Positions 986 to 36,720 of a stretch of DNA of 64,000 bases are shown in pieces. Each line of letters starts with the position of its first letter. The first letter of the stretch is position 1. This stretch comes from Clostridia bacterium. Lineage in GTDB: Bacteria; Bacillota; Clostridia; Oscillospirales; CAG-272. The stretch spans positions 240,917-304,916 of the forward strand of contig JAFUJB010000016.1 in the NCBI GenBank assembly GCA_017473865.1, given 5' to 3'. The position numbers and the translations under genes were made by a program. Under the pieces are notes generated by a model, which saw only the letters and a list, made by a program, of their open reading frames with translations, ran no database searches and was not told the DNA's origin.

Positions 986-1826
986 ATATGTGGTAGGTAA
1001 GAAACCTAATTACACAATGCAAAGCACATCGGTCGTCCCGATGTGCTTTTTCTCTCTCCCCCCGTCCTATTTATAAAAACCTTGATTTTCAGAGGAATGT
1101 ATGGTATTATAAGTGCGGTAAATCGCAAGTTTATATCGGCCCAATAAAAGTGAAATTTACTTATAAATTACCCACGGTATCCACGATTTACCCATAACAT
1201 TCGAGACTGTGTTAGATTTAAAGATACAATATAAGAGGCTTTGTCAAACACTATGTCTATCCCCACCATAAAACCTTTGGACTAATATAGTTCAAAGAAA
1301 TCCAGTAGTTATGCGGTTTTGCGGTGGTTTAGAGCCTTAAAAAACTACGCTACTACGCCAATTTTCACAAGAGATTTGCAGAGAAAAGTCACTATGATAG
1401 TCTAAAATATCAAGCACCGTGCAAACTGCACGGCGTTTTTATTATATATAAATTTTTTTAGTTATGTGAGATATGTAAAGTTGCATTTTTAAACGTTAAG
1501 GAAAGTACCCGTTATTGTTACATAACAAAACTGTGCAGTGCGCCTTAATGATGGGTAAGACAGTGATTTATTTGAAAACAAAAATCTTGTAATTACAAAA
1601 TCAATATTAGAAAACGACATTTCATCTATTTACCCTTTTAGTTGCGCTAAAGGTATGTAAGGTATGTTATAATATGTCCCATATGCCATCGCGACTTATA
1701 ATTTATATTTAATTTTTGTATTCTGATAAAGCAATAACAATATATATATTATTGATAATATTGAATATACAAAAAACGACCGTTAAAAAGTGTTATCTTT
1801 TTAACGGTTTGCAAACGTATTAAAAA

Positions 1827-1861
1827 GCGCCGTAGATGATTTTCTACGGCGCTTTTTTTTT
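1827..1861. terminator. Bidirectional rho-independent terminator
   Basis: GCGCCGTAGA-tgattt-TCTACGGCGC, a 10-bp perfect stem followed by T9. There is also an A/T run on the other side. It lies downstream of the integrase gene on the minus strand. Confidence 0.6.
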
Positions 1862-1878
1862 CGCAGAGTTCCACACTC
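1862..1878. repeat. Left copy of a 17-bp perfect inverted repeat, CGCAGAGTTCCACACTC
   Basis: Exact reverse complement of 3291-3307. This copy also forms a local hairpin (CAGAGT-tccac-ACTCTG). Confidence 0.7.
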
Positions 1879-1925
1879 TGCAAATTAATGAAAAAAAGCA
1901 GTTAAAATAAGGGCTTAAAGAGTTT

Positions 1926-1948
1926 TTTTGACGGAAGCTCCTGACGGC
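1926..1948. repeat. Left copy of an imperfect ~23-bp direct repeat, TTTTGACGGARGYTCYTGACGGC
   Basis: TTTTGACGGAAGCTCCTGACGGC here versus TTTTGACGGAGGTTCTGACGGC at 3127-3148. Each copy contains two TGACGG half-sites. This copy abuts the integrase stop codon. Confidence 0.6.
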
Positions 1949-1949
1949 T

Positions 1950-3074
1950 TTACAAACAGCCAACCATGACGACCTTATTCATATTGTCACGTTTAAGTTC
2001 TAAAGATGAGTGAACATATCTTTCAAGTGTGATCTGTGGGCTTGAATGGCCGAGAATTTCGCTTAATGATTTTATTTCAAAACCACCCTCTACACACCGA
2101 GTTGCAAAAGTGTGTCGGAGAGTATGGAAATGCACATCTTCAATATCGCAATCTTTAGTGTACCTTTCCATTTTGTACTGCAAGGATCTTGGCTCTATGA
2201 ATTCATAAGGACTACCCGATAGAACAAATGCTGTCTGTGATAGCGGTTTGAACCTTTTGCAAAGGTTAATTGCAAAATCGCTTAAAGGTATAATCCGAGC
2301 TGAAGTATCGCTTTTTGGATCGCTGATTATAATTTTTGTTTTTGTAGTTCGGTTTATATCAAAATCCCTTAACCTTTGCATTGTGGAAGTGATCTTAATT
2401 ATTCCGTCTTTAATGGATATGTTTTCCCAGCGGAGCGCACATATTTCTCCTATTCTCATTCCGGTAAGCAAGGTTAATAGAGTGCCGAACTTGCAGTAAT
2501 CCATATCCTCAAGCAAATACTGAACAAATCGCATTTGTTCTTCTTTTGTCAGTACACGCATTTCCTTTTTTACATCTTTTGGGTAATAAATCTCAACATT
2601 AGGGAAAACCCCTTGATATTGACGGGCTGAATACTTTAATATTGAATGAAGAACAATTAAAATGTCTTTTACGGTTTTAGGAGCTAATTCTTCCTCATAT
2701 AATAGTTCTTGTGTGAATTGCTCTACTAATATAGTTGATAATGCCTGAATGAAGCAACCGCCAAGTTTGGGTTTTATATGTTTTTCTATTGTAGTGTTAT
2801 ACTTCACATAGGTAGATTCCTTTACCTTTATCTTGTTTAACCGCAGCCATTCATCACAATAGTAAGAGAATCTTTTGCGGCGATTTTGTTCAGGGGATGG
2901 CACGTTTATCAACAAGGCCGCTTTTGCACGCTCTACCTTCTCCTTTGCTTCACGATATGTCTTTCCGTAACAATAGCCATAACTAGCCGAACCGTTGGGA
3001 TCATAACCTTTTATATATCGAGCTTCCCAACGCTTATCTTTTCTTTTGTAAATATTTTCACCTTTTTTTGACAT
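1950..3074 (-). CDS. Tyrosine-type site-specific recombinase/integrase (phage-integrase family)
   Basis: 374 aa. C-terminal catalytic motifs HTLRHTFATR … LGHSSPQITLERYVHSS (the R…HxxR…Y tyrosine-recombinase signature). There is a core-binding-like N-terminal domain. Confidence 0.9.
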   Translation of the reverse strand: MSKKGENIYKRKDKRWEARYIKGYDPNGSASYGYCYGKTYREAKEKVERAKAALLINVPSPEQNRRKRFSYYCDEWLRLNKIKVKESTYVKYNTTIEKHIKPKLGGCFIQALSTILVEQFTQELLYEEELAPKTVKDILIVLHSILKYSARQYQGVFPNVEIYYPKDVKKEMRVLTKEEQMRFVQYLLEDMDYCKFGTLLTLLTGMRIGEICALRWENISIKDGIIKITSTMQRLRDFDINRTTKTKIIISDPKSDTSARIIPLSDFAINLCKRFKPLSQTAFVLSGSPYEFIEPRSLQYKMERYTKDCDIEDVHFHTLRHTFATRCVEGGFEIKSLSEILGHSSPQITLERYVHSSLELKRDNMNKVVMVGCL

Positions 3075-3126
3075 AATGAAACCTCCTTGATATTATGTAG
3101 TTTGAAAAAACTTTATCCTTTCCTTA

Positions 3127-3148
3127 TTTTGACGGAGGTTCTGACGGC
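3127..3148. repeat. Right copy of the imperfect direct repeat (TTTTGACGGAGGTTCTGACGGC)
   Basis: See 1926-1948. It lies ~55 bp upstream of the integrase start codon. Confidence 0.6.
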
Positions 3149-3290
3149 GGTACACCATTGCAAAATCGACAAAAACCATTGTAAAACTGCCTTTTAACCT
3201 CATCAAAAGGGAAAAAATCTTGAACTTTTTGCTTTTAGAGGCCAAAACCACTTGCGTTTTTGCGGATTATATGCTAAAATAACCCCCGTG

Positions 3291-3307
3291 GAGTGTGGAA
3301 CTCTGCG
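3291..3307. repeat. Right copy of the 17-bp perfect inverted repeat (GAGTGTGGAACTCTGCG)
   Basis: Reverse complement of 1862-1878. It lies ~170 bp upstream of the TetR gene. Confidence 0.7.
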
Positions 3308-3474
3308 AAAGCAGCTTAAAACAAGGGCTTATTCTATGTGCAATACTGTTTTTAGCATTTACCGGCAGAACCAAAGAGTTAATAATGTAAACTCTGTCGA
3401 TTTTTTCGGCGAGAGTTTGTTTTTTGAGTATTTTATAGTAAATACTTATGCTGCTTTGAAGGGGGAAGATTGTA

Positions 3475-4077
3475 ATGACGCAAGCAGAGCGAAAACTTGC
3501 GTTACTCTGTAGCACCATCTCTGTAATAGCTAGGGATGGCCTTGACAAAACAACAACAAGAGCTATTGCAACCGAAGCAAATCTGAATGAAGCTTATATT
3601 TATCAGTTGTTTGACAGTAAAGAGGATTTATTCAAAGAAGTCTTTGCAACCTTAGATGATGAACTGGTTTCAATAATTCTTTTCCGCTTACCTGTAATGT
3701 ATATGGAATCTATGGACTTTGAAACCCGGTGCCGTGCGCTGTTCTTTTCTTGCTGGAGATTTATCCTCGGCAACAAAGATAAGTGTCTTTGTTTTATACG
3801 CTATTATTATTCGCCTTACTTTAAGAAATATTCATATGACGAACATAATAAGCGCTACCAAAGTGTTCTTGAAAAAATGACACCTGCCTTTCGTAAAAAA
3901 AGTAATGTTTGGATGTTGCTTAACCACATTCTGAACACAATGCTTGACTTTGCCGTAAAGGTGTTTAACGGAGATATAAATGATAATGACGATACTGCTG
4001 AACACGTATTTTTGGTTATTTACTCATCCGTTAAACCTTATATTGAACCCCATCATTTGATAAATAAGGAGGGATAA
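3475..4077 (+). CDS. TetR/AcrR-family transcriptional regulator
   Basis: N-terminal HTH: TTTRAIATEANLNEAYIYQLFDSKEDLF. 200 aa. Immediately precedes the sipW-like gene. Confidence 0.85.
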   Translation: MTQAERKLALLCSTISVIARDGLDKTTTRAIATEANLNEAYIYQLFDSKEDLFKEVFATLDDELVSIILFRLPVMYMESMDFETRCRALFFSCWRFILGNKDKCLCFIRYYYSPYFKKYSYDEHNKRYQSVLEKMTPAFRKKSNVWMLLNHILNTMLDFAVKVFNGDINDNDDTAEHVFLVIYSSVKPYIEPHHLINKEG

Positions 4078-4083
4078 CCAAAG

Positions 4084-4617
4084 ATGCAAATGGAAAAGAC
4101 GTTAAAAAGAGTCTGGGATGTTATTTCAACGATTGTTGTTGTTATAGTAGTAATATTTGCGATTCTTTTGGTTGGTGTGCGTTTGTTTGGTGTACAGGTA
4201 TACTCGGTTATTTCAGGTTCAATGGAGCCTGAATATCCGGTAGGATCACTTATTTATGTTAAAGAAGTTGATCCTTCAAAAATTGAAGTAAATGATGTTA
4301 TTACTTATGTGTTGCCTAATGATATGCCATCTACTCACCGAGTAATAAAAATTGATGCCGAAAAACAATTGTTTTACACAAAGGGAGATGCAAATAAAAC
4401 TGAAGATGGAGCACCGGTTCATTTTAATAATTTAATAGGTACTCCCGTTTTCAAGATACCGTGTCTCGGATATGTTGCTTACTATATTCAGCATCCACCC
4501 GGTATGTATATTGCTATTGCTGCCGGAGCAGTTCTACTGATACTTGTCTTTCTGCCTGATTTATTCAAAAAGGATAAGAAGAAAGACGAGCACCCCACAA
4601 AACAGATGGGGATATAA
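4084..4617 (+). CDS. sipW: Signal peptidase I, SipW/archaeal-ER type (S26B)
   Basis: N-terminal TM segment, then the S26B catalytic-serine motif SGSMEPEYPVGSL. C-terminal TM anchor (IAIAAGAVLLILVFL) as in SipW. Followed by cognate TasA-family genes. Confidence 0.8.
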   Translation: MQMEKTLKRVWDVISTIVVVIVVIFAILLVGVRLFGVQVYSVISGSMEPEYPVGSLIYVKEVDPSKIEVNDVITYVLPNDMPSTHRVIKIDAEKQLFYTKGDANKTEDGAPVHFNNLIGTPVFKIPCLGYVAYYIQHPPGMYIAIAAGAVLLILVFLPDLFKKDKKKDEHPTKQMGI

Positions 4618-4673
4618 TTCAGGGGTAACGCCGTAAGGCTCCCAAATAAATACTTTTTAAGGAGGTTTTTGTT

Positions 4674-5372
4674 ATGAGAACAAAAACGAAAGCATTGGCT
4701 CTGGCTCTTTGCGCGGTGTTACTCGTCGTTAGTACAGTATTCGTAACGATGGCATTCCTCACCGGCAGTGATTCGGTCCAAAACACATTCACGTTTGGTC
4801 AAGTTGGAATATCGCTAGACGAAGCAGAAGTTGACGCAAGCGGTAAAGTAAAAAATGGCGAAAACCGTAAATCTACAGATGGTCGTGTTGAGGGAAATGA
4901 GTATCATCTTATTCCCAGCCACAACTATGTGAAGGATCCTACGATCCACGTAGATGACGACAGCGAAAATTGTTTGCTGTTTGTAAAGCTTGAAAATGCT
5001 CTGGAGCCCATCGTTGCAGGTAAAAATACTTTTTCTGCTGAAGATCCTGCAGATACCGTTTATACCATTGAAGCACAGATGATGAAGAATGGTTGGACTC
5101 TTATTGACTCTGCCAATAACATTTGGGCTTACAATAAAGTCGTTGCTGAAAATGAACACATCAACGTGTTTGATGAGTTTACACTCACCGATAATGCTGA
5201 TGTCTCCAAGTATGCAACAGTAAAGGATGATCAAGGGAATGTTAAAGGTGGCAAAACAATCAAAGTAACCGCATACGCAGTTCAGGCTGACGGATTTGTT
5301 GAAGATACTACAGTTTCTCCCGATGACGCGAAGAACGCTTGGGGCGAAACTAAAGATTCCTTTGAAAACTAA
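4674..5372 (+). CDS. TasA/CalY (camelysin, peptidase-M73) family secreted fibre subunit with SipW-cognate signal peptide
   Basis: Signal h-region followed by MAFLTGSDSVQNTFTFGQV, which fits the SipW-cognate class A-[FY]-[FL]-[ST]-D…N-x-F-x-x-G. C-terminal VTAYAVQADGF strand. RBS AAGGAGG. Confidence 0.7.
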   Translation: MRTKTKALALALCAVLLVVSTVFVTMAFLTGSDSVQNTFTFGQVGISLDEAEVDASGKVKNGENRKSTDGRVEGNEYHLIPSHNYVKDPTIHVDDDSENCLLFVKLENALEPIVAGKNTFSAEDPADTVYTIEAQMMKNGWTLIDSANNIWAYNKVVAENEHINVFDEFTLTDNADVSKYATVKDDQGNVKGGKTIKVTAYAVQADGFVEDTTVSPDDAKNAWGETKDSFEN

Positions 5373-5433
5373 TTTCGTAATTAAAGCAGAAGTGCTTAAT
5401 TAATAACAAATACAATGAAAGGAGAAAAATGAT

Positions 5434-6081
5434 ATGACAACTAATAAGAAGCTAGTAATTGCCATCGTAGCTCTTTCGATCGCACTCGTTTGCGTTATAG
5501 GCGGCACACTTGCATTCCTTATTGATTCCACAGAAACGGTAACTAACACATTTACATACGGCGAAATTGATATTGAGCTTTGGGAGAATACCGTTGATGA
5601 TGAAGGCAACCTAACGGAAACAAAGGATTACGACGGCATCGTATATGGAAAGATAGTTCCTGGTGATGTCGTTAATAAGAATCCTACTGTAACTGTTAAG
5701 GAAGGCAGCGAAGAGTGCTATGTATACGTAAAGGTTACAGATACTCTTGCAGTTGATTCTGTTGTTACCGATATGAGTATCGGTGAAAATAACGACTGGC
5801 AGGTTGTAAAAAATGATGGTAATGTAACTCTCTATCGCTATAAGACTACCGTAAAAGCTCCTGCTGAAAACAACGATAGCACTGCTGACGATATTAATAT
5901 TGCTGTTTTCACAAAAGTTACCTTCCCCGGTGAACTTACCAATGATCAGATTGAAAGTCTCAAGGCAGCTGGTAACAAGATTGAAATCCAAGCTTACGCA
6001 CATCAGTCCGAGAATATTGATGATGTAACTGTTGCCGATACTGAAGCAATCGCTTGGGCTAAAGTGACGGCTTCAAACTAA
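5434..6081 (+). CDS. TasA/CalY-family secreted fibre subunit (paralog 2)
   Basis: GGTLAFLIDSTETVTNTFTYGEIDIEL. C-terminal IQAYAHQSEN strand. Confidence 0.7.
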   Translation: MTTNKKLVIAIVALSIALVCVIGGTLAFLIDSTETVTNTFTYGEIDIELWENTVDDEGNLTETKDYDGIVYGKIVPGDVVNKNPTVTVKEGSEECYVYVKVTDTLAVDSVVTDMSIGENNDWQVVKNDGNVTLYRYKTTVKAPAENNDSTADDINIAVFTKVTFPGELTNDQIESLKAAGNKIEIQAYAHQSENIDDVTVADTEAIAWAKVTASN

Positions 6082-6122
6082 TTCAAATCAACCCACGAAG
6101 TTAAAGAAAGGAAAAACGAAGC

Positions 6123-6728
6123 ATGAAAAAAGGTTTAATTCTTGTTCTTGCTATAGTGATGGTTGTCTGCATCAGCATCAGTGCAACTCTTGCATATTTG
6201 TTCGTTGAGACAACCCCTGTAAAAAACACCTTTGAGTATGGCGATATCAACATAGAACTTAAGGAACATAAGTATGTAGACGGTAAATTGACAAACGAAG
6301 AAGTAACAGCTAACACCAGTTACAAAGTAGTTCCTGGTGTTAGCGAAGATAAAGATCCCTTCGTAAGAGTAAGGAAAGGCAGCGAAAAATGCTACATTTA
6401 CGTTACTGTTGAAAATAGTGTAAAGTTGGATGATGGTACTGTTGTGGCTTCTGTTAATATCAATACAACTGATTGGGTTAAGGTCGCCGCCAGTGGTGAT
6501 ATCACACTTTACCGTTACAAAGACGTAGTTGATGTTTCTGATGCTACAGAGGATATTGAACTTCCGGTGTTTACAACAGTAACCTATGATGCTGAGAAGA
6601 TTCTTAAGGACAATATTGCACAAGTCAAAGACGATACAATTACCGTTATTGCTTATGCATATCAAGCAACCAATGTGGAACAGAGCTATGCTGATACAGC
6701 TGTAAAGACTATGGCAGACATCTCCTAA
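6123..6728 (+). CDS. TasA/CalY-family secreted fibre subunit (paralog 3)
   Basis: SATLAYLFVETTPVKNTFEYGDINIEL. C-terminal VIAYAYQATN strand. Confidence 0.7.
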   Translation: MKKGLILVLAIVMVVCISISATLAYLFVETTPVKNTFEYGDINIELKEHKYVDGKLTNEEVTANTSYKVVPGVSEDKDPFVRVRKGSEKCYIYVTVENSVKLDDGTVVASVNINTTDWVKVAASGDITLYRYKDVVDVSDATEDIELPVFTTVTYDAEKILKDNIAQVKDDTITVIAYAYQATNVEQSYADTAVKTMADIS

Positions 6729-6759
6729 TTTAAGTCTGAATTGACAATTAATATCCTAA

Positions 6760-8445: not shown

Positions 8446-9015
8446 ATGAAAAAGAAAATATTGGTTTGCGCTTTCATAGCTGTTTGCTTGTCAATTGTTG
8501 CATATAGTACTACTGCATATTTTACATATGAAGATACTGCTACTAATGTAATAACGATGGGAAATATCAAAATTGAATTACAGGAGTTGGCAATTCCGGG
8601 TAGTGGTGGAGATCCAATTCCTTTCGAGGACGCAATTGATGTGCTTCCAGGAATGGATGTATCAAAAATTGTTCAAGTAAAGAACGTCGGAGCTCAACCG
8701 TCTTGGATTAGAGTATCTGTTGCAAAATCCATATTACTTGCTGACGGTATCATCGGTGAGGTAGATTTATCACTCATTACATATGATTTGAACACGCAAT
8801 ATTGGATTGAACAGGACGGATATTTTTATTACAAAGATATTGTTAATCCCGGCGAAACAACAGAACCGCTGTTCACGAAAGTGATGTTCGCGTCTAATAT
8901 GAGCAATATGTATCAGCGAAGTAAAGCTACAATAAAAATCAATGCACAAGCAACACAAGTGGTTAACAACGGCAGCATGGTATTTGAAGCTGCCGGTTGG
9001 CCGAAAGCAGAGTAA
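8446..9015 (+). CDS. TasA/CalY-family secreted fibre subunit (paralog 6, divergent)
   Basis: YSTTAYFTYEDTATNVITMGNIKIEL. C-terminal INAQATQVVN strand. Preceded by a 147-bp gap that contains two hairpins. Confidence 0.65.
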   Translation: MKKKILVCAFIAVCLSIVAYSTTAYFTYEDTATNVITMGNIKIELQELAIPGSGGDPIPFEDAIDVLPGMDVSKIVQVKNVGAQPSWIRVSVAKSILLADGIIGEVDLSLITYDLNTQYWIEQDGYFYYKDIVNPGETTEPLFTKVMFASNMSNMYQRSKATIKINAQATQVVNNGSMVFEAAGWPKAE

Positions 9016-9029
9016 GGAGGTAGAGCAAA

Positions 9030-31628: not shown

Positions 31629-31657
31629 TTGACAAAAGGTAGGGAGTATAGTATAAT
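31629..31657 (+). promoter_or_regulatory. Consensus sigma-A promoter for the tRNA-Leu/tRNA-fMet operon
   Basis: TTGACA, 17-bp spacer, TATAAT (ttgacaaaaggtagggagtatagtataat). ~20 bp before tRNA-Leu. Confidence 0.7.
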
Positions 31658-31675: not shown

Positions 31676-31765
31676 GCCGGTGTGGCGGAATTGGCAGACG
31701 CCCGGGACTTAAAATCCCGTGGGAATTCAACTCCCGTACCGGTTCGACCCCGGTCACCGGCACCA
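31676..31765 (+). tRNA. tRNA-Leu (anticodon TAA)
   Basis: GCCGGTGTGGCGGAATTGGCAGACGC… Long variable arm. Anticodon loop cttaaaa. 3' CCA is encoded. Confidence 0.9.
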
Positions 31766-31789: not shown

Positions 31790-31866
<77 letters not shown>

Positions 31867-31872
31867 AAATGA

Positions 31873-31903
31873 AAAGGCATCCAGAAGGATGCCTTTTCGT
31901 TTT
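31873..31903 (+). terminator. Rho-independent terminator after the tRNA operon
   Basis: AAAGGCATCC-agaa-GGATGCCTTT followed by TCGTTTT. Confidence 0.6.
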
Positions 31904-31965
31904 GCCTGCAGGTCGAGGATTGTAACATAAGGCAGTCGGGTTATGAGCCCGAAGGGCGAATAAGG

Positions 31966-32095
31966 CGGAGGTAGAGAGCGAAGCGAGCGGCCGAGTGGGA
32001 GTGAATGACAGTCCGGTGGACTGTCAGAGCCACGAGGTGACCGAAGTCAAGTTCTCCGCAGAGAATTTGACAAGAACGTGTGGTTCAAGTCCCAC
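31966..32095. repeat. Left copy of a 129-130-bp direct repeat (island boundary, att-like) that ends in tRNA-fMet T-arm sequence
   Basis: cggaggtagagagcgaagcgagcggccgagtgggagtgaatgacagtccggtggactgtcagagccacgaggtgaccgaagtcaaGttctccgcagagaatttgacaagaacgtgtggttcaagtcccac. Identical to 36352-36480 except for one base. Contains the internal hairpins GACAGTCC-ggt-GGACTGTC and AATTCTC-cgca-GAGAATT. Confidence 0.75.
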
Positions 32096-32261
32096 ATTTT
32101 TTTCGTATAACCGTCCATTAGGAATAGTCAGGGTTTTGACTGTTCTTTTTAGACGGCTTTTTGTCGAGTTTTGGTCGGATTTTGAATAGTATTATTGAAA
32201 AAATACAAGGTTTATGCTACAATAATAAAAATGACTGACATTACTTTTAAGGAGAAAATTT

Positions 32262-33794
32262 ATGGGATTATTAAAGTGTCCTGATTGTGGTAAAGAGTTT
32301 TCTGATAGAATTGATGCTTGCCCGAATTGCGCCTGTCCAAAGAGTGTAGTTTTGAAAGAATTAGAGTCTAAAGAAGAAGTGCAAGTTAATAATGAGATAA
32401 AAAGTGAAGAAATTAACCCATTTAAATATACTAAAAAAGACTTAATGTCTTATGAAGAATTAAAAATTTTTTCTATACAATCAATCTTGCCATACATATG
32501 CGAAGAATTAAAGATTAATAAAGCAGATATAAGTGAATGTGATGCTCAATATGGCGTTGATTTTATTGCAAAAACGACAGACGGTGCTATAGGTATTAAG
32601 TTTATAATAGATATTGCTCCCAATAAAAGTATAAAACTTTATGACGAAGATGCGGCAAAGAAAATGTACTCTTTAGGTTTTAAATTTGCTGTTGCTCAAA
32701 TTGGTGTAGGTTCAAAAGATGAGTTAAGATTCCAAAGACGTGTTGTGCTAAAAAATGATGGATATTTGTTTAATTATACAGGGCTCAAATATTTCGAGTA
32801 TAAAGATTATTCAAATGTTAGATTGTCGTTAAGCGAAGATACATCTTGGAAATATATATTTAATCCCAAAACAGACGAAGAAAATCCTTATACGATAAAA
32901 AAAGAAAAAAGAACATATCGAGAATATTTTAATAGTGATACATATGAAACAACAATACAAGGTTTGTTCGATAAGTACTACATTCAAAGTCGTCATAGAG
33001 AGTTTTTGAAAGAATATATATTAAGTTTGGCAGAATCAATTCAATACTCATTAAGTGCAGAAAATACACTTGTAAACTTTATGAACTGTGTTGATTATTG
33101 TCAAGGGTTGTTTTTGTCAAATAGTAAAGCTGTCAAGGAGAATAAAATAATACTTAAAACAATTGAACTATTAGAAGAAAATAGTTTTATTAGTTTAAAT
33201 AAGTACGAGTTATTTAATTTCGGTTTTTATGTTTATTATTTCTTAAAAAACGGCGGAACAAATGCTGAAATGATTTCTTCATCTTTGGCTGATAAAATGA
33301 AAATTGATTTATATTATTCAACTCCAGAACTCTTTGGGTTTGAGAAAAAGGTTATTATGAATAGTGGCGATAATGAGCTAAAAAAAGTCTTGTTAGATCT
33401 CTCTAATCCAAATCATATTACGAAATTAAACAACAAAAGTGTATGTAATAGTTTTGATGAATATTATAGCGCTAAAGCATCTAAAAGCTTAAAAAACTGG
33501 AAAACTACTCTTGGTGTGTTGTTGATTATAAGTGCAGCAATAAGTTTAGTGTCCTTAATTTTAGGTAATTATTTTGCTTTAGTTGATATTGTTTTGTGTT
33601 TGGTTTTTGGAGTGTTAATATTTAAAAATAATAGTTGGATATATGCTTTGTTGGTTGCTATATATCAGGGGATAGTTGTAATCATTAACTTAGACGCAGG
33701 AAAATCCACAGTAAATTTATTTCCTTTAGTTATTTCATTAATTGTTATGTTTGGAATTATCAAGTTAAAAAAAGAATATGGAAGCGGCAACTAA
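32262..33794 (+). CDS. Island-encoded protein: N-terminal zinc ribbon + ~400-aa cytoplasmic region + C-terminal 3-TM anchor. Unknown function.
   Basis: CPDCGKEF…CPNCACP at the N-terminus. C-terminal hydrophobic helices (LGVLLIISAAISLVSLILG…, LVDIVLCLVFGVLIF, ALLVAIYQGIVVIINL, LFPLVISLIVMFGII). Very AT-rich codon usage compared with the flanking genes. Confidence 0.5.
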   Translation: MGLLKCPDCGKEFSDRIDACPNCACPKSVVLKELESKEEVQVNNEIKSEEINPFKYTKKDLMSYEELKIFSIQSILPYICEELKINKADISECDAQYGVDFIAKTTDGAIGIKFIIDIAPNKSIKLYDEDAAKKMYSLGFKFAVAQIGVGSKDELRFQRRVVLKNDGYLFNYTGLKYFEYKDYSNVRLSLSEDTSWKYIFNPKTDEENPYTIKKEKRTYREYFNSDTYETTIQGLFDKYYIQSRHREFLKEYILSLAESIQYSLSAENTLVNFMNCVDYCQGLFLSNSKAVKENKIILKTIELLEENSFISLNKYELFNFGFYVYYFLKNGGTNAEMISSSLADKMKIDLYYSTPELFGFEKKVIMNSGDNELKKVLLDLSNPNHITKLNNKSVCNSFDEYYSAKASKSLKNWKTTLGVLLIISAAISLVSLILGNYFALVDIVLCLVFGVLIFKNNSWIYALLVAIYQGIVVIINLDAGKSTVNLFPLVISLIVMFGIIKLKKEYGSGN

Positions 33795-34102
33795 GCTTGA
33801 TAACGTAATATTAAATAACACTTCGGGGAGAGTTAAAAGATCAAAATTGATATAATATATATGAAAAATGGAGATGAAAAGGTAGTACTATGGCGTAGTA
33901 CTGCCTTATTGTTTTCTAATAAACTAATTATATTTTGACAAATAAATTGCTTTTAATGTGATAAGTTAATAAAAAGTCTTTATATTCAATTCAATTTGAT
34001 CTAACCATCCTGTTAAATGGAGAAAAAATCTCTAAATGTGCATTTTGAGTGTTGACTTTTAGAGATAAATGGATATAATATAATCAAAAGGAGTGATTAA
34101 CT

Positions 34103-35455
34103 ATGTTAATAAAAGTTGTTGTAGATAACTTTTTATCTTTTAATAAGGAAACCGAATTAACAATGATTCCTTCGAATAAAACTAGAAAAAAGTCGGAACA
34201 TAAAGTCAAAGTTAAGAGCACACCCATGCTTAAATATGCTGTTGTTTATGGTGCTAATGCATCAGGAAAGTCTAATCTTATAGAAGTTTTTCAATTTATA
34301 AAATATTGTGTAGAAAAAACTATTCCTATAGAAGCTATTTCTAAGTTTTGTAAAACTAATAAATCTAATATTGATAAACCGAGTCTTTTTGAACTTCAAT
34401 TCACGGTAGGAAATAAGTTTTATGCGTATGGGTTTTCTATTGTTTTAAATACTAGGACAATTGAATCTGAATGGTTATATGAACTCTATCAAAACGGAAC
34501 ACAAAAAACATTATTTGAAAGAGAGAAAGGAAAAAAACCTGTTATTGGGGAAGATATAAACCTAACTGATTCTGATAACGCAAAATTAACAACTTACCTT
34601 GAGGATTTTGAAGAAAATTCAAGCTCTTTATTTTTAACTATAATGAATCGCGGAAAGAAATATGCTTACGATTCTAAGTTGCTTTTCTTTAAAGAAGTCT
34701 ACGAATGGATAAGTAAAAATTTGATTATTGTAACTCCAAATACTTCACTCAGAAGTTTTGAATATTATTATGATAATGCTTCATTAAGTTTGATTAGCGA
34801 TTTAATTAAAACATTTGATACAGGTATAACTGAGGTTAATGTTGTAGAAATCTCTATGGAAGAGCTTGGAAAGGAACTTCCTCCCCCTATTTTTGAGAGT
34901 ATTATTTCGGATATTAAAGAAAAAACAGAAGATGAAAAGAATATTGAAATAAAGCTATCCATGCGTTCTGATCGTAGTTTCTTTAATATTGAAGTCAAAA
35001 AAGGGCAACCACCCAAAATTACTACTATCTCATTAAAACACGGAAAGTCATTTTATAAATTTAAGTATGAGGAAGAGTCGGATGGTACAAGAAGACTGTT
35101 TGACTTGTTAGATATACTTTTAAACAAAACAAATGATACTGTATATATTGTAGATGAAATGGAAAGAAGTCTACACCCGAAACTCACATCAAGATTTATT
35201 GAGCTTTTTGACAAGATTCATTTATCGAATAATATGCAATTAATTTTTACTACACATGAATCATCAATAATGGACCAAAAACTATTTAGAAGAGATGAGA
35301 TTTGGTTTGTAGAACGTAACAATGAAAATGTTAGTAGTATATACTCTTTAGACAAGTTTAAAGAAAGATACGACAAAAAACTAAGTAAGGCATATTTAGA
35401 AGGTAGATATGGTGCTATACCCGTATTCACTGCATTTAAATTTACGGGGGAATAA
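34103..35455 (+). CDS. AAA-family ATPase (AAA_21/ABC-like), AbiLi-like defence ATPase
   Basis: Walker A YGANASGKSNLIE. Walker B/D-loop VYIVDEMERSLHP. 450 aa. Translationally coupled to the downstream RloB-like gene (stop at 35455, ATG at 35458). Confidence 0.8.
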   Translation: MLIKVVVDNFLSFNKETELTMIPSNKTRKKSEHKVKVKSTPMLKYAVVYGANASGKSNLIEVFQFIKYCVEKTIPIEAISKFCKTNKSNIDKPSLFELQFTVGNKFYAYGFSIVLNTRTIESEWLYELYQNGTQKTLFEREKGKKPVIGEDINLTDSDNAKLTTYLEDFEENSSSLFLTIMNRGKKYAYDSKLLFFKEVYEWISKNLIIVTPNTSLRSFEYYYDNASLSLISDLIKTFDTGITEVNVVEISMEELGKELPPPIFESIISDIKEKTEDEKNIEIKLSMRSDRSFFNIEVKKGQPPKITTISLKHGKSFYKFKYEEESDGTRRLFDLLDILLNKTNDTVYIVDEMERSLHPKLTSRFIELFDKIHLSNNMQLIFTTHESSIMDQKLFRRDEIWFVERNNENVSSIYSLDKFKERYDKKLSKAYLEGRYGAIPVFTAFKFTGE

Positions 35456-35457
35456 TT

Positions 35458-36183
35458 ATGGCACCAATTCGAACTTATACAGACTGGAATACTCGCCCAT
35501 CAAATAAAGAAAAACAAATTGAACCATACAAGCACTACTATTTTATATGCGAAGGTCAAAACACTGAAAAATGGTACTTTGAGAGATTTATTGATATGAA
35601 AAAGCAGTTTTCTATTTCTGCATTAATTAGTATTCAATATCTCGAAAAGACTGAAGAGCATGAGACATGGTCTGATCCTAAGAAATTGTATGAATTAGCA
35701 GAAACTTGCAGAAAGAGCGGAGATATCTCTTTTGACCCTAAACATGATACTATGATTATAGTTTTTGATGCAGATATATATGAAAAACGAGAGCCTTCAT
35801 CATTTAATGATTTTATCCTAGAGGCGTCAAAAACCAATACTATTTGTCTGACGAATCCTAGCTTTGAATTGTTTTTGTTGTTACATTATGAGAATTCTTT
35901 TAATGAAATTATATTTCCCAACAAAGACAAAATAATACAAAATGATTGGGTTAATTATGGTACTGAAAAAATACGGTACATAGAGAGTATGTTTAGACAA
36001 AAATCTGGATTACAACCTAAAAAAGATCCATCTATAGCAGATTTAGTTAAAGATGTTTCAAATGCTATTCAGCAAGAGAAAATGTTAAATAATAATATAT
36101 GGTCTTGTAGAGGAAAACTCACATCTAATGTAGGTATAATTATTCAAAATATAATTGATGATAAGTGCGAAGAGTATAGATAA
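35458..36183 (+). CDS. RloB-like protein (AbiLii-like), partner of the AAA ATPase
   Basis: N-terminal YYFICEGQNTEKWYF matches the RloB-family signature (ilIvcEGekTEpnYf). 241 aa. Confidence 0.75.
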   Translation: MAPIRTYTDWNTRPSNKEKQIEPYKHYYFICEGQNTEKWYFERFIDMKKQFSISALISIQYLEKTEEHETWSDPKKLYELAETCRKSGDISFDPKHDTMIIVFDADIYEKREPSSFNDFILEASKTNTICLTNPSFELFLLLHYENSFNEIIFPNKDKIIQNDWVNYGTEKIRYIESMFRQKSGLQPKKDPSIADLVKDVSNAIQQEKMLNNNIWSCRGKLTSNVGIIIQNIIDDKCEEYR

Positions 36184-36341
36184 TTTATTTAACGAATATT
36201 TCTGGTAAATTATTAGCTACAAACAAATCTAAACAGAATAAAAATTATTGTTTTATTATTGTCGGCTTTTTGGTCGGCTCGGTGATAATGATATATAGGC
36301 TGATTAGGCGATGGATTTTATTCTTGAGTTTCTTTAATCAG

Positions 36342-36491
36342 CTCATAACCCGGAGGTAGAGAGCGAAGCGAGCGGCCGAGTGGGAGTGAATGACAGTCCG
36401 GTGGACTGTCAGAGCCACGAGGTGACCGAAGTCAAATTCTCCGCAGAGAATTTGACAAGAACGTGTGGTTCAAGTCCCACCCCCGCAACCA
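36342..36491 (+). pseudogene. Partial 3' copy of tRNA-fMet (anticodon arm through the CCA-proximal end) interrupted by a ~107-nt insertion. Contains the right copy of the direct repeat (36352-36480).
   Basis: gctcataacccggagg + insert + gtgtggttcaagtcccacccccgcaacca. The 5' acceptor, D arm and anticodon 5' stem are missing. Confidence 0.7.
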
Positions 36492-36544
36492 GAAAAAACG
36501 ACAGGTTTTGACCTGTCGTTTTTTCAACGAAATTTGCCATTCGG

Positions 36545-36720
36545 GCAAGTGAAATAGCTTCGCTGTGAAATATTTGCTTTGCAAATGTGAAATGTTCGCA
36601 TGCGCGAACGTGGGCAAATTTCATTTCACATTGCGACGAAGGAGCAATATTTCACAATGTGCTTGGGCACATTATTTCACATTTTGCAGCAAGGCAAAAT
36701 ATTTCACTGAATAATGCATC
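36545..36720. repeat. Array of ~7 GTGAAAT/ATTTCAC iteron-like motifs, 3 forward then 4 reverse (dyad-symmetric array)
   Basis: aGTGAAATag, tGTGAAATattt, tGTGAAATgttcg | aaATTTCATTTCACAttg, atATTTCACAatg, ttATTTCACAttt, atATTTCACtg. Confidence 0.55.

Follow-up and report, generated by a model that had tools for sequence, protein, structure and literature searches.

A putative tandem array of integrase-less units, with a repeated structured module, behind an initiator tRNA gene in Clostridia

Downstream of the intact initiator tRNA gene (tRNA-fMet) in a 64-kb stretch of DNA from a gut Clostridia bacterium (the window) lie an AT-rich islet of 4.25 kb and two 136-nt direct repeats, each of which contains a 104-nt sequence (the E core) and ends in a copy of the T-arm of that tRNA. 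This locus raises the question of how a series of tRNA fragments came to lie behind an intact tRNA gene. Our analysis favours, with slightly more confidence than doubt, the accumulation at a tRNA hotspot of cis-mobilizable elements dependent on an integrase supplied in trans. The loci of other genomes and contigs compared with the window are labelled L001–L021.

Layout of the tRNA-fMet locus

The 18-mer of the tRNA-fMet T-arm (GTGTGGTTCAAGTCCCAC) occurred exactly three times in the 64 kb, at 31838, 32078 and 36463 (0.03 occurrences expected from shuffles), with spacings of 240 and 4385 bp. The first occurrence belongs to the intact gene, whose position had been given correctly in an earlier note on this DNA (31790-31866; we set the coordinates by sequence readout, those of ARAGORN being one base early). 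The other two are exact copies, with which both direct repeats end as that note had claimed. The repeats are 98% identical, with three mismatches (31964/31965, GG vs CC; 32051, G vs A), and the left one starts 93 nt past the end of the intact tRNA-fMet. The shorter repeat described before was recovered at 31966-32095 with its single mismatch, its right partner being 36351-36480, one base from the position first given. The sequence CGGAGGT and the 104-nt E core directly precede the T-arm at the end of both the 240-bp and the 4385-bp unit. The right repeat does lie in a partial tRNA-fMet 3′ half, which matches tRNA positions 32-47 and 48-77 perfectly, but the element within it is not a 107-nt sequence replacing 2 nt of the variable region, as had been thought. 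It is a clean insert of 104 nt between T47 and C48, with no bases replaced. The AT-rich interior was confirmed (GC 0.287 in the island, 0.415 in the rest of the window). This geometry is read directly, and it places the islet between T-arm copies 2 and 3, not at the functional tRNA.

We propose that the array would run from tRNA-fMet through unit 1 (240 bp), T-arm copy 2 and unit 2 (4385 bp) to T-arm copy 3, behind which the acceptor strand and terminator of the original gene would stand. Unit 1 would hold the E core together with a terminator, an anticodon arm in inverted orientation and a degenerate copy of the tRNA 3′ half, and unit 2 the AT-rich islet and a second E core. Both would belong to one family of non-autonomous integrative elements whose shared right end is a copy of the tRNA-fMet 3′ half holding the E core in the variable-loop position. 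Since the units would stand in tandem, each with the same end block before a T-arm, the 136-nt repeats would be explained as equivalent right ends of two related units, to which the duplicated T-arm is joined. We infer that each unit was inserted by site-specific recombination of the tyrosine-integrase type, that crossing over took place within the T-arm region on the 3′ side of the E core, and that the second insertion used the att site left by the first (accretion). The crossover must have been 3′ of the GG/CC difference and, as the true tRNA lacks a core, was probably downstream of the core as well. Because neither unit encodes a recombinase, movement would depend on an integrase provided in trans by larger elements with arm repeats of the 10-mer TTTTGGTCGG, and the islet would be a small carrier with a swappable slot for anti-phage cargo. 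The expected circle junction would read ...TTTAATCAGCTCATAACC-CGGAGGT-E-CCCAC-ATTTTTTTCGTATAACC, the islet-free site GGGCGAATAAGG...E...CCCAC-CCCCGCAACCA, and the fully empty site tRNA-fMet followed directly by GAAAAAACGACAGG. The hairpin behind T-arm copy 3 is presumed, by analogy, to be the original terminator of the tRNA-fMet gene, because L001 has after E the terminator that stands behind the tRNA in its relative L020. On this reading, the locus would show small integrase-less units piling up behind an essential tRNA gene and leaving the gene undamaged.

The E-bearing mini-unit was found as an insertion of 188-189 bp in L001 and L002. Comparison of L001 with L020 showed that the terminator standing directly 3′ of the tRNA in L020 stands after the E unit in L001. 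The two loci align over 73 nt after E (score 109) and match over only 22 nt after the true tRNA, which in L001 is then followed by a terminator different from that of L020. The pair is an occupied and an empty site, and the inserted unit is 188 bp. An empty tRNA-fMet site, which the earlier note had proposed to seek in sister genomes, was found for the E mini-unit in this pair and was not found for the 4.25-kb islet. T-arm copies are spaced by 188 bp in L001, by 5213 and 189 bp in L002, and by 231 bp in L018. A different mini-insert of about 190 nt (8915-9067, folding z = −3.8) lies in L018 between tRNA-fMet and a second tRNA 3′ half; it did not match the E model and has in common with E CCGCAGCG and a CC-GGT-GG hairpin loop.

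Our analysis of L002 showed a 5.2-kb island within tRNA-fMet (1590-6757) that encodes a tyrosine integrase (Pfam 2e-28), a helix-turn-helix regulator and a HepT-like toxin. It is bounded by a 52-nt identity block that begins in the anticodon loop, and repeated TTGTCCATTATT arm motifs occur at both its ends. With this integrase and this identity block, the island shows that relatives do use the 3′ half of tRNA-fMet for attachment. The earlier proposal that the initiator tRNA 3′ end served as attB stood as far as this island at tRNA-fMet goes, but the islet of the window does not abut the functional tRNA.

The initiator tRNA itself (31837-31855; L001 1432-1509) has a 6-nt 5′ strand in its T stem (GTGTGG/GCGTGG against CCCAC/CCCGT), which gives a bulged U. 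This bulged-U stem is kept in two distant lineages and is copied exactly in the E units.

Table 1. Coordinates of features of the tRNA-fMet locus in the window.
Feature	Position	Strand	Remarks
Intact initiator tRNA (CAU), tRNA-fMet	31790..31866	+	Head of the putative array, T-arm copy 1; Rfam 59.6 bits
Terminator hairpin directly 3′ of tRNA-fMet	31871..31898	+	Left end of putative unit 1 (240-bp mini-unit)
tRNA-fMet anticodon arm, reverse-complement copy (CGGGTTATGAGCCCGA)	31937..31952	+	Same feature in L001 and L002
tRNA positions 28-47, degenerate direct copy (GGGCGAATAAGGCGGAGGT)	31954..31972	+	
Left 136-nt direct repeat	31960..32095	+	
E core, left copy	31973..32076	+	Helix 1, hairpin 1 (32006-32026), hairpin 2 (32046-71); covariance model 93.4 bits
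T-arm copy 2	32077..32095	+	Putative unit 1/unit 2 junction
Islet left arm	32096..32261	+	Tandem arm-like repeats (GACGGCTTTTTGTCGAGTTTTGGTCGG, 32150-32178); promoter-like site 32195-32223
First islet gene, 510 aa	32262..33794	+	N-terminal CxxC...CxxC zinc ribbon; C-terminal hydrophobic helices
Variable cargo slot	33804..36241	+	AbiLi ATPase 34103-35455; AbiLii/RloB 35458-36183
Islet right arm	36242..36341	+	Conserved in L006 and L010; contains GTCGGCTTTTTGGTCGGCTCGG (36260-36281)
tRNA-fMet positions 32-47, perfect copy (CTCATAACCCGGAGGT)	36342..36357	+	
Right 136-nt direct repeat	36345..36480	+	
E core, right copy	36358..36461	+	104-nt insertion, variable-loop position; hairpin 1 36391-36411, hairpin 2 36431-56
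T-arm copy 3, acceptor 3′ strand and ACCA	36462..36491	+	Perfect match to tRNA positions 48-77
Hairpin ACGACAGG/CCTGTCGT, then T run	36498..36524	+	

Distribution and structure of the E core

The E core was sought with a 20-mer scan of one genome per species and then with a hairpin-agnostic pattern in metagenomes. The scan matched it in two further Clostridia metagenome-assembled genomes (MAGs), L001 and L002, and the pattern gave two more copies, L004 and L005. Another 20-mer hit, L003, was ruled out as a chance match within a coding region. A covariance model (R1) recovered the copies of the window, L001, L002, L004 and L005 at 85-100 bits; it found only two copies in the window and none in the other fetched loci. 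In L001, which is island-free, the order is tRNA-fMet, terminator, anticodon-arm reverse complement, GAATAAGTCGAAGGT, E core and T-arm, and this T-arm is identical to that of the genome's own tRNA. L002 has the same kind of layout, with the integrase island inserted upstream within the tRNA. The E core of L005, a metagenome contig, lies past a tRNA-Tyr gene and its terminator and is joined to a tRNA-Tyr 3′ end inside the T-loop. In all tRNA-linked copies, the tRNA-Tyr site included, E adjoins a tRNA 3′ segment.

L004 is a phage, with terminase, portal and internal virion protein genes (PHROGs), and no relatives of its portal protein were found in viral contigs. Its E core lies in a 309-nt intergenic gap on the strand opposite to the genes and is followed by a degenerate CCCGTCCCCAC. 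Just upstream of it (8449-8535) are two copies of a GTCATTGCGA(A/G)G... motif, which may be another small repeat family.

The earlier note had asked whether the element recurs elsewhere in the genome. Within the 64 kb only the two att-linked copies are present, and the four other copies come from other genomes and contigs. The view that the element is a product of this island or peculiar to its att core was not supported, as the same module is found islet-free in two MAGs, beside tRNA-Tyr and in a phage. No E core was detected by model R1, with filters off, in L018-L021, relatives that share the synteny of M23-peptidase and tRNA-fMet and resemble the synteny block of L001 (86, 72 and 64% protein identity). 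The E core is accessory, being present in L001, L002, L004 and L005 and absent from L018-L021.

The covariance-model scan that had been suggested matched no Rfam family, either for the window copy (E<=10) or for the four other copies (E<=5), and ARAGORN called no tRNA or tmRNA at the E core. The repeat had no BLAST match among 50,697 phage and 72,556 plasmid records, and the L004 version gave a single insignificant one. A literature search with an invariant 15-mer returned unrelated primer sequences only.

Comparison of the five independent sequences (window, L001, L002, L004 and L005) showed long, unpaired invariant stretches, AGTGAATGAC, GTCAGAGCCACGAGG and CCGCAG. Hairpin 1 (9 bp) sits between the first two of these, and its middle three pairs covary (AGT/ACT, ATG/CAT, GCG/CGC), with changes in two lineages, L004 and L005. 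All alignment cells of this hairpin are paired (100%), and none of 500 shuffles reached the observed covariation score. Compensatory substitutions in helices, by which a structured RNA or single-stranded DNA element is generally recognized, are therefore directly seen in hairpin 1. The tandem G.A pairs of an outer helix (CC-GA-GUGG / CCAC-GA-GG) are replaced in L004 by U-A and C-G. Hairpin 2 keeps a CGCA loop on a stem that ranges from 2 to 11 bp. Both hairpins named in the earlier note are present, and the second extends to 11 bp. The folding z-scores of E were −3.9 to −5.7 relative to shuffles on either strand, and its 5′ junctions were all RGGT or AGGA. The 5′ part of the core also contains GCGAAGC (31983-31989 and 36368-36374), a sequence that forms an unusually stable DNA mini-hairpin; it is found likewise in L002 and L004, and L001 has GCAAAGC in its place.

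These results make the E core, a conserved and covarying module of ~80-105 nt outside Rfam, a candidate for RNA or recombination-site biochemistry. Our working guess is that these units use it in cis as a folded element of RNA or single-stranded DNA. A more far-reaching idea, which we offer tentatively and regard as rather doubtful, is that it is an undescribed, horizontally moving structured module in the tRNA-derived att block of non-autonomous units of 188 bp to 4.4 kb. It would have spread among tRNA-fMet, tRNA-Tyr and phage sites, and it may let integrase-less units be recognized and moved. If so, elements driven by integrases would have a lifestyle like that of miniature inverted-repeat transposable elements (MITEs).

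Three other readings of the core were rejected. A bridge RNA or guide RNA would not be expected to keep the same internal loops at different targets, as the core does, and there is no neighbouring gene for a recombinase or TnpB. A T-box is not indicated, as there was no Rfam match and the hairpin-1 loop is not conserved, and conserved coding is contradicted by an indel between the window and L001 that breaks the frame.

The islet and its family

Homologues of the first islet gene product (510 aa), 97% and 94% identical, were found on two short contigs, L006 and L010. The left arm of the islet is 97% identical to L006 from 32122 and 99% identical to L010 from 32143, both of which continue into the 510-aa gene. 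L006 parts from the window 9 nt past the stop codon of this gene and rejoins it over the last ~120 nt. Identity of the right arm to L006 and L010 is 82-89%, against 97-99% for the left arm and the 510-aa gene. The slot between gene and right arm is occupied by AbiD in L006 and by a 359-aa gene in L010 (1714-2793). The product of the latter had no Pfam or PADLOC match, and this protein is a candidate for a defence gene.

In the window the slot holds the AbiL-like pair noted before. PADLOC identified AbiLi (3.6e-83) and AbiLii (1.3e-18), and Pfam identified AAA_21 and RloB; the two genes are 3 nt apart. The adjacent AbiLi and AbiLii genes by which an AbiL defence system is defined are therefore present.

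Each end of the islet has one nearby copy of the 10-mer TTTTGGTCGG, in the same orientation, and the window contains no others; in L019, L020 and L021 the 10-mer stands in tandem directly after tRNA-fMet. We infer that these repeats are integrase arm sites, and the arm repeats shared with L019 and L020 are at most suggestive of mobility driven by a helper. The 4.25-kb islet is a member of a family with near-identical ends, tandem TTTTGGTCGG, a conserved 510-aa gene and differing cargo. Neither the core nor the right arm nor the arm repeats turned up in pattern scans of viral contigs, and a viral scan with the 510-aa alignment gave only zinc-ribbon look-alikes with no E core, and one 18.9-bit match that was GC-rich coding sequence.

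The 510-aa protein had no family match. Its predicted structure (pLDDT 66) gave as top PDB matches PD-(D/E)xK folds (Hjc, HincII and tRNA-splicing endonuclease), all with E>0.1, and the weakly similar alpha/beta domain covers residues ~60-180. With membrane-like helices at its C terminus, the protein resembles a defence effector more than a recombinase, and it may be a new one. Distant homologues (35-39% identical) stand beside an integrase in L008 and beside a trypsin-like protease in L007.

The claimed absence of an integrase was borne out: none of the three islet ORFs had an integrase domain by Pfam, and tblastn with three integrases found no remnant. The window does encode a tyrosine integrase of 374 aa (1950-3074, minus strand; Pfam 3.4e-25), 30 kb upstream and beside a truncated AAA_14 ATPase ORF. 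It is not evident as the helper, as no TTTTGGTCGG repeats are near it and it is only 25-27% identical to the integrases of L002 and L008.

The earlier note had called the island decayed or satellite-type. It is horizontally acquired and integrase-less, with att-like bounds derived from tRNA-fMet, and "satellite-type" fits better than "decayed" because the islets of L006 and L010 share its ends and first gene and differ in cargo. Exact-protein look-ups yielded no islet-free strain, since each site-spanning contig with identical flanking proteins carries the islet. Two other contigs end at the islet edge, and L016 ends inside tRNA-Leu.

Alternative explanations and comparison with known systems

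The accretion reading has to be weighed against several observations that speak against it. The E core is not obligatory for the islet family, because the right junction of L006 (CAGCTCATAACCCGGAAGTCGTGAGGTT) has no E core and leads into a different flank. The species of the window yielded neither an empty site nor an islet-free strain nor a circular junction. The two E copies of the window differ at only 1 of 117 nt, which requires very closely related donors or later gene conversion. The left junction of the islet supplies no acceptor strand, so that insertion of this unit could not rebuild a real tRNA. A cognate integrase was not identified: the sequence of L019 runs off its locus, and arm repeats that match are absent from the window integrase. 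Circles of only 188-240 bp would be very small, and the mini-units may be deletion remnants. Finally, only five independent E sequences are available, and the L004 copy lies opposite to the genes, so that E may act on either strand.

A simpler account would be one decayed island in the 3′ end of the functional tRNA-fMet, with the intact tRNA as attL, the right partial tRNA as attR, the left repeat as an internal sequence, and E as the att core or a small RNA of the island. Without its 104-nt insert, the right copy does match the tRNA perfectly over the 3′ half, starting in the anticodon loop and running through ACCA, and the integrase island of L002 is bounded in exactly that manner. This account is nevertheless unlikely: the E unit stands alone as a 188-189-bp insertion with an empty-site relative, the conserved left arm of the islet begins directly after T-arm copy 2 and not after the tRNA, and a second E core within the island is left unexplained. 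We find it similarly improbable that E is a host-encoded small RNA gene derived from tRNA-fMet, targeted by an islet that, in the manner of tRNA-targeting islands, brings a replacement 3′ part, so that the 136-nt repeat would be a block of identity selected for restoring E. Such a gene would explain why the repeat starts within the tRNA-like part and stops where the T-arm ends, after which the islet provides a T run (32097-32103) that scores jointly with T-arm copy 2 as terminator-like. It would also suit the covariation in the structure and the potential of GCGG-A-GG in the window, as read from its sequence, to pair with CCCCGC in an acceptor-like stem ending in ACCA. However, closer syntenic relatives lack E, the E of L001 behaves as an insertion, the acceptor pairing is kept in neither L001 nor L002, and upstream there is a terminator and no promoter.

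That E is an independent small transposable insertion, MITE-like or derived from IS200-IS605, which homed after AGGT in both pseudo-tRNA copies once the islet had arrived, seems very improbable. The insertion is clean, lies between T and C of GGAGGT|CG without target duplication and has the 5′ junctions given above; one copy sits in a phage intergenic gap, and the right arm of L006 is the same sequence minus the core. Yet the terminal inverted repeats of such elements are missing and the two hairpins are dissimilar, no transposase is associated, the element is confined to two copies in the 64 kb with none elsewhere in the fetched loci, and the conserved 5′ region reaches upstream of the supposed junction. 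The 136-nt repeats, at 98% identity, are long enough for homologous recombination, so that circular or linear E-bearing DNA could have entered through RecA at a resident E with no site-specific recombination; alternatively, the repeats could have arisen by local duplication. We give this little credence, since the tRNA similarity of the right copy extends further left (CTC) than that of the left copy, whereas a simple duplication would give identical 5′ boundaries. In addition, the same junction CAGCTCATAACCCGGA ends the islet of L006 in a different flank, and arm-like repeats are present at both ends.

Tandem accretion of cis-mobilizable elements (CIMEs) at tRNA and other att sites has been documented in Firmicutes (review PMC5704250). 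As in the CIMEs defined there, the islet has bounding repeats like attL and attR, lacks genes for integration or transfer, and shares the 3′ end of a target gene with another unit in tandem. Unlike the known CIMEs, which are decayed integrative and conjugative or integrative and mobilizable elements, three islets here keep the same architecture while their defence cargo is exchanged, as would suit a lineage that propagates; some units also measure no more than 188-240 bp, and a structured module lies inside the tRNA-like block.

Partial duplication of the tRNA on integration is usual for tRNA-targeting islands (PMC9897764), and tandem islands at ssrA are known in Dehalococcoides (PMC3146451). 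The locus resembles such tyrosine-integrase islands of tRNA and tmRNA genes in that its borders carry repeats of the 3′ part of an RNA gene, the composition deviates from that of the host, and the hotspot holds arrays, the L002 island being a standard example at the same tRNA. It departs from them in that the islet of the window has no integrase of its own and does not abut the functional tRNA. Its direct repeats reproduce the tRNA 3′ part, but only for the whole array, and not for the islet, does one copy lie within an intact tRNA. The window repeat also reaches 136 nt owing to the 104-nt insert, and the left junction lacks the acceptor strand. The AbiL pair resembles known systems in that both proteins match PADLOC AbiL models and the genes are adjacent, and differs in being cargo only and not the defining feature of the element.

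Structured elements at att or recombination sites include the sib retroregulator of phage lambda and the attC sites of integrons. The E core is similar to these in being a conserved folded element beside the presumed recombination core, with a stem kept by compensatory change. It has no sequence or architectural match to them and keeps long invariant unpaired stretches that they lack.

As an AT-rich defence islet that lacks an integrase and lies at a tRNA hotspot, the island itself is ordinary. What is unusual is the tandem of mini-unit and islet, the fixed frame with exchangeable cargo, and the covarying undescribed module in the tRNA-like block. A compact islet family of gut Clostridia with fixed ends and exchangeable anti-phage cargo could serve in the search for new defence genes. 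Annotators should bear in mind that an insert in a pseudo-tRNA fragment can lead to wrong calls of att sites and tRNAs.

Upstream of tRNA-fMet, an intact tRNA-Leu (31676-31765) is co-transcribed with it, and a promoter of perfect consensus (31629-31657) precedes the two genes. Directly downstream of the right repeat and its terminator, two Gut-1 RNA motifs, inverted relative to each other, were found at 36525-36598 (plus strand) and 36618-36709 (minus strand), with 60.4 and 51.7 bits (Rfam gathering threshold 50).

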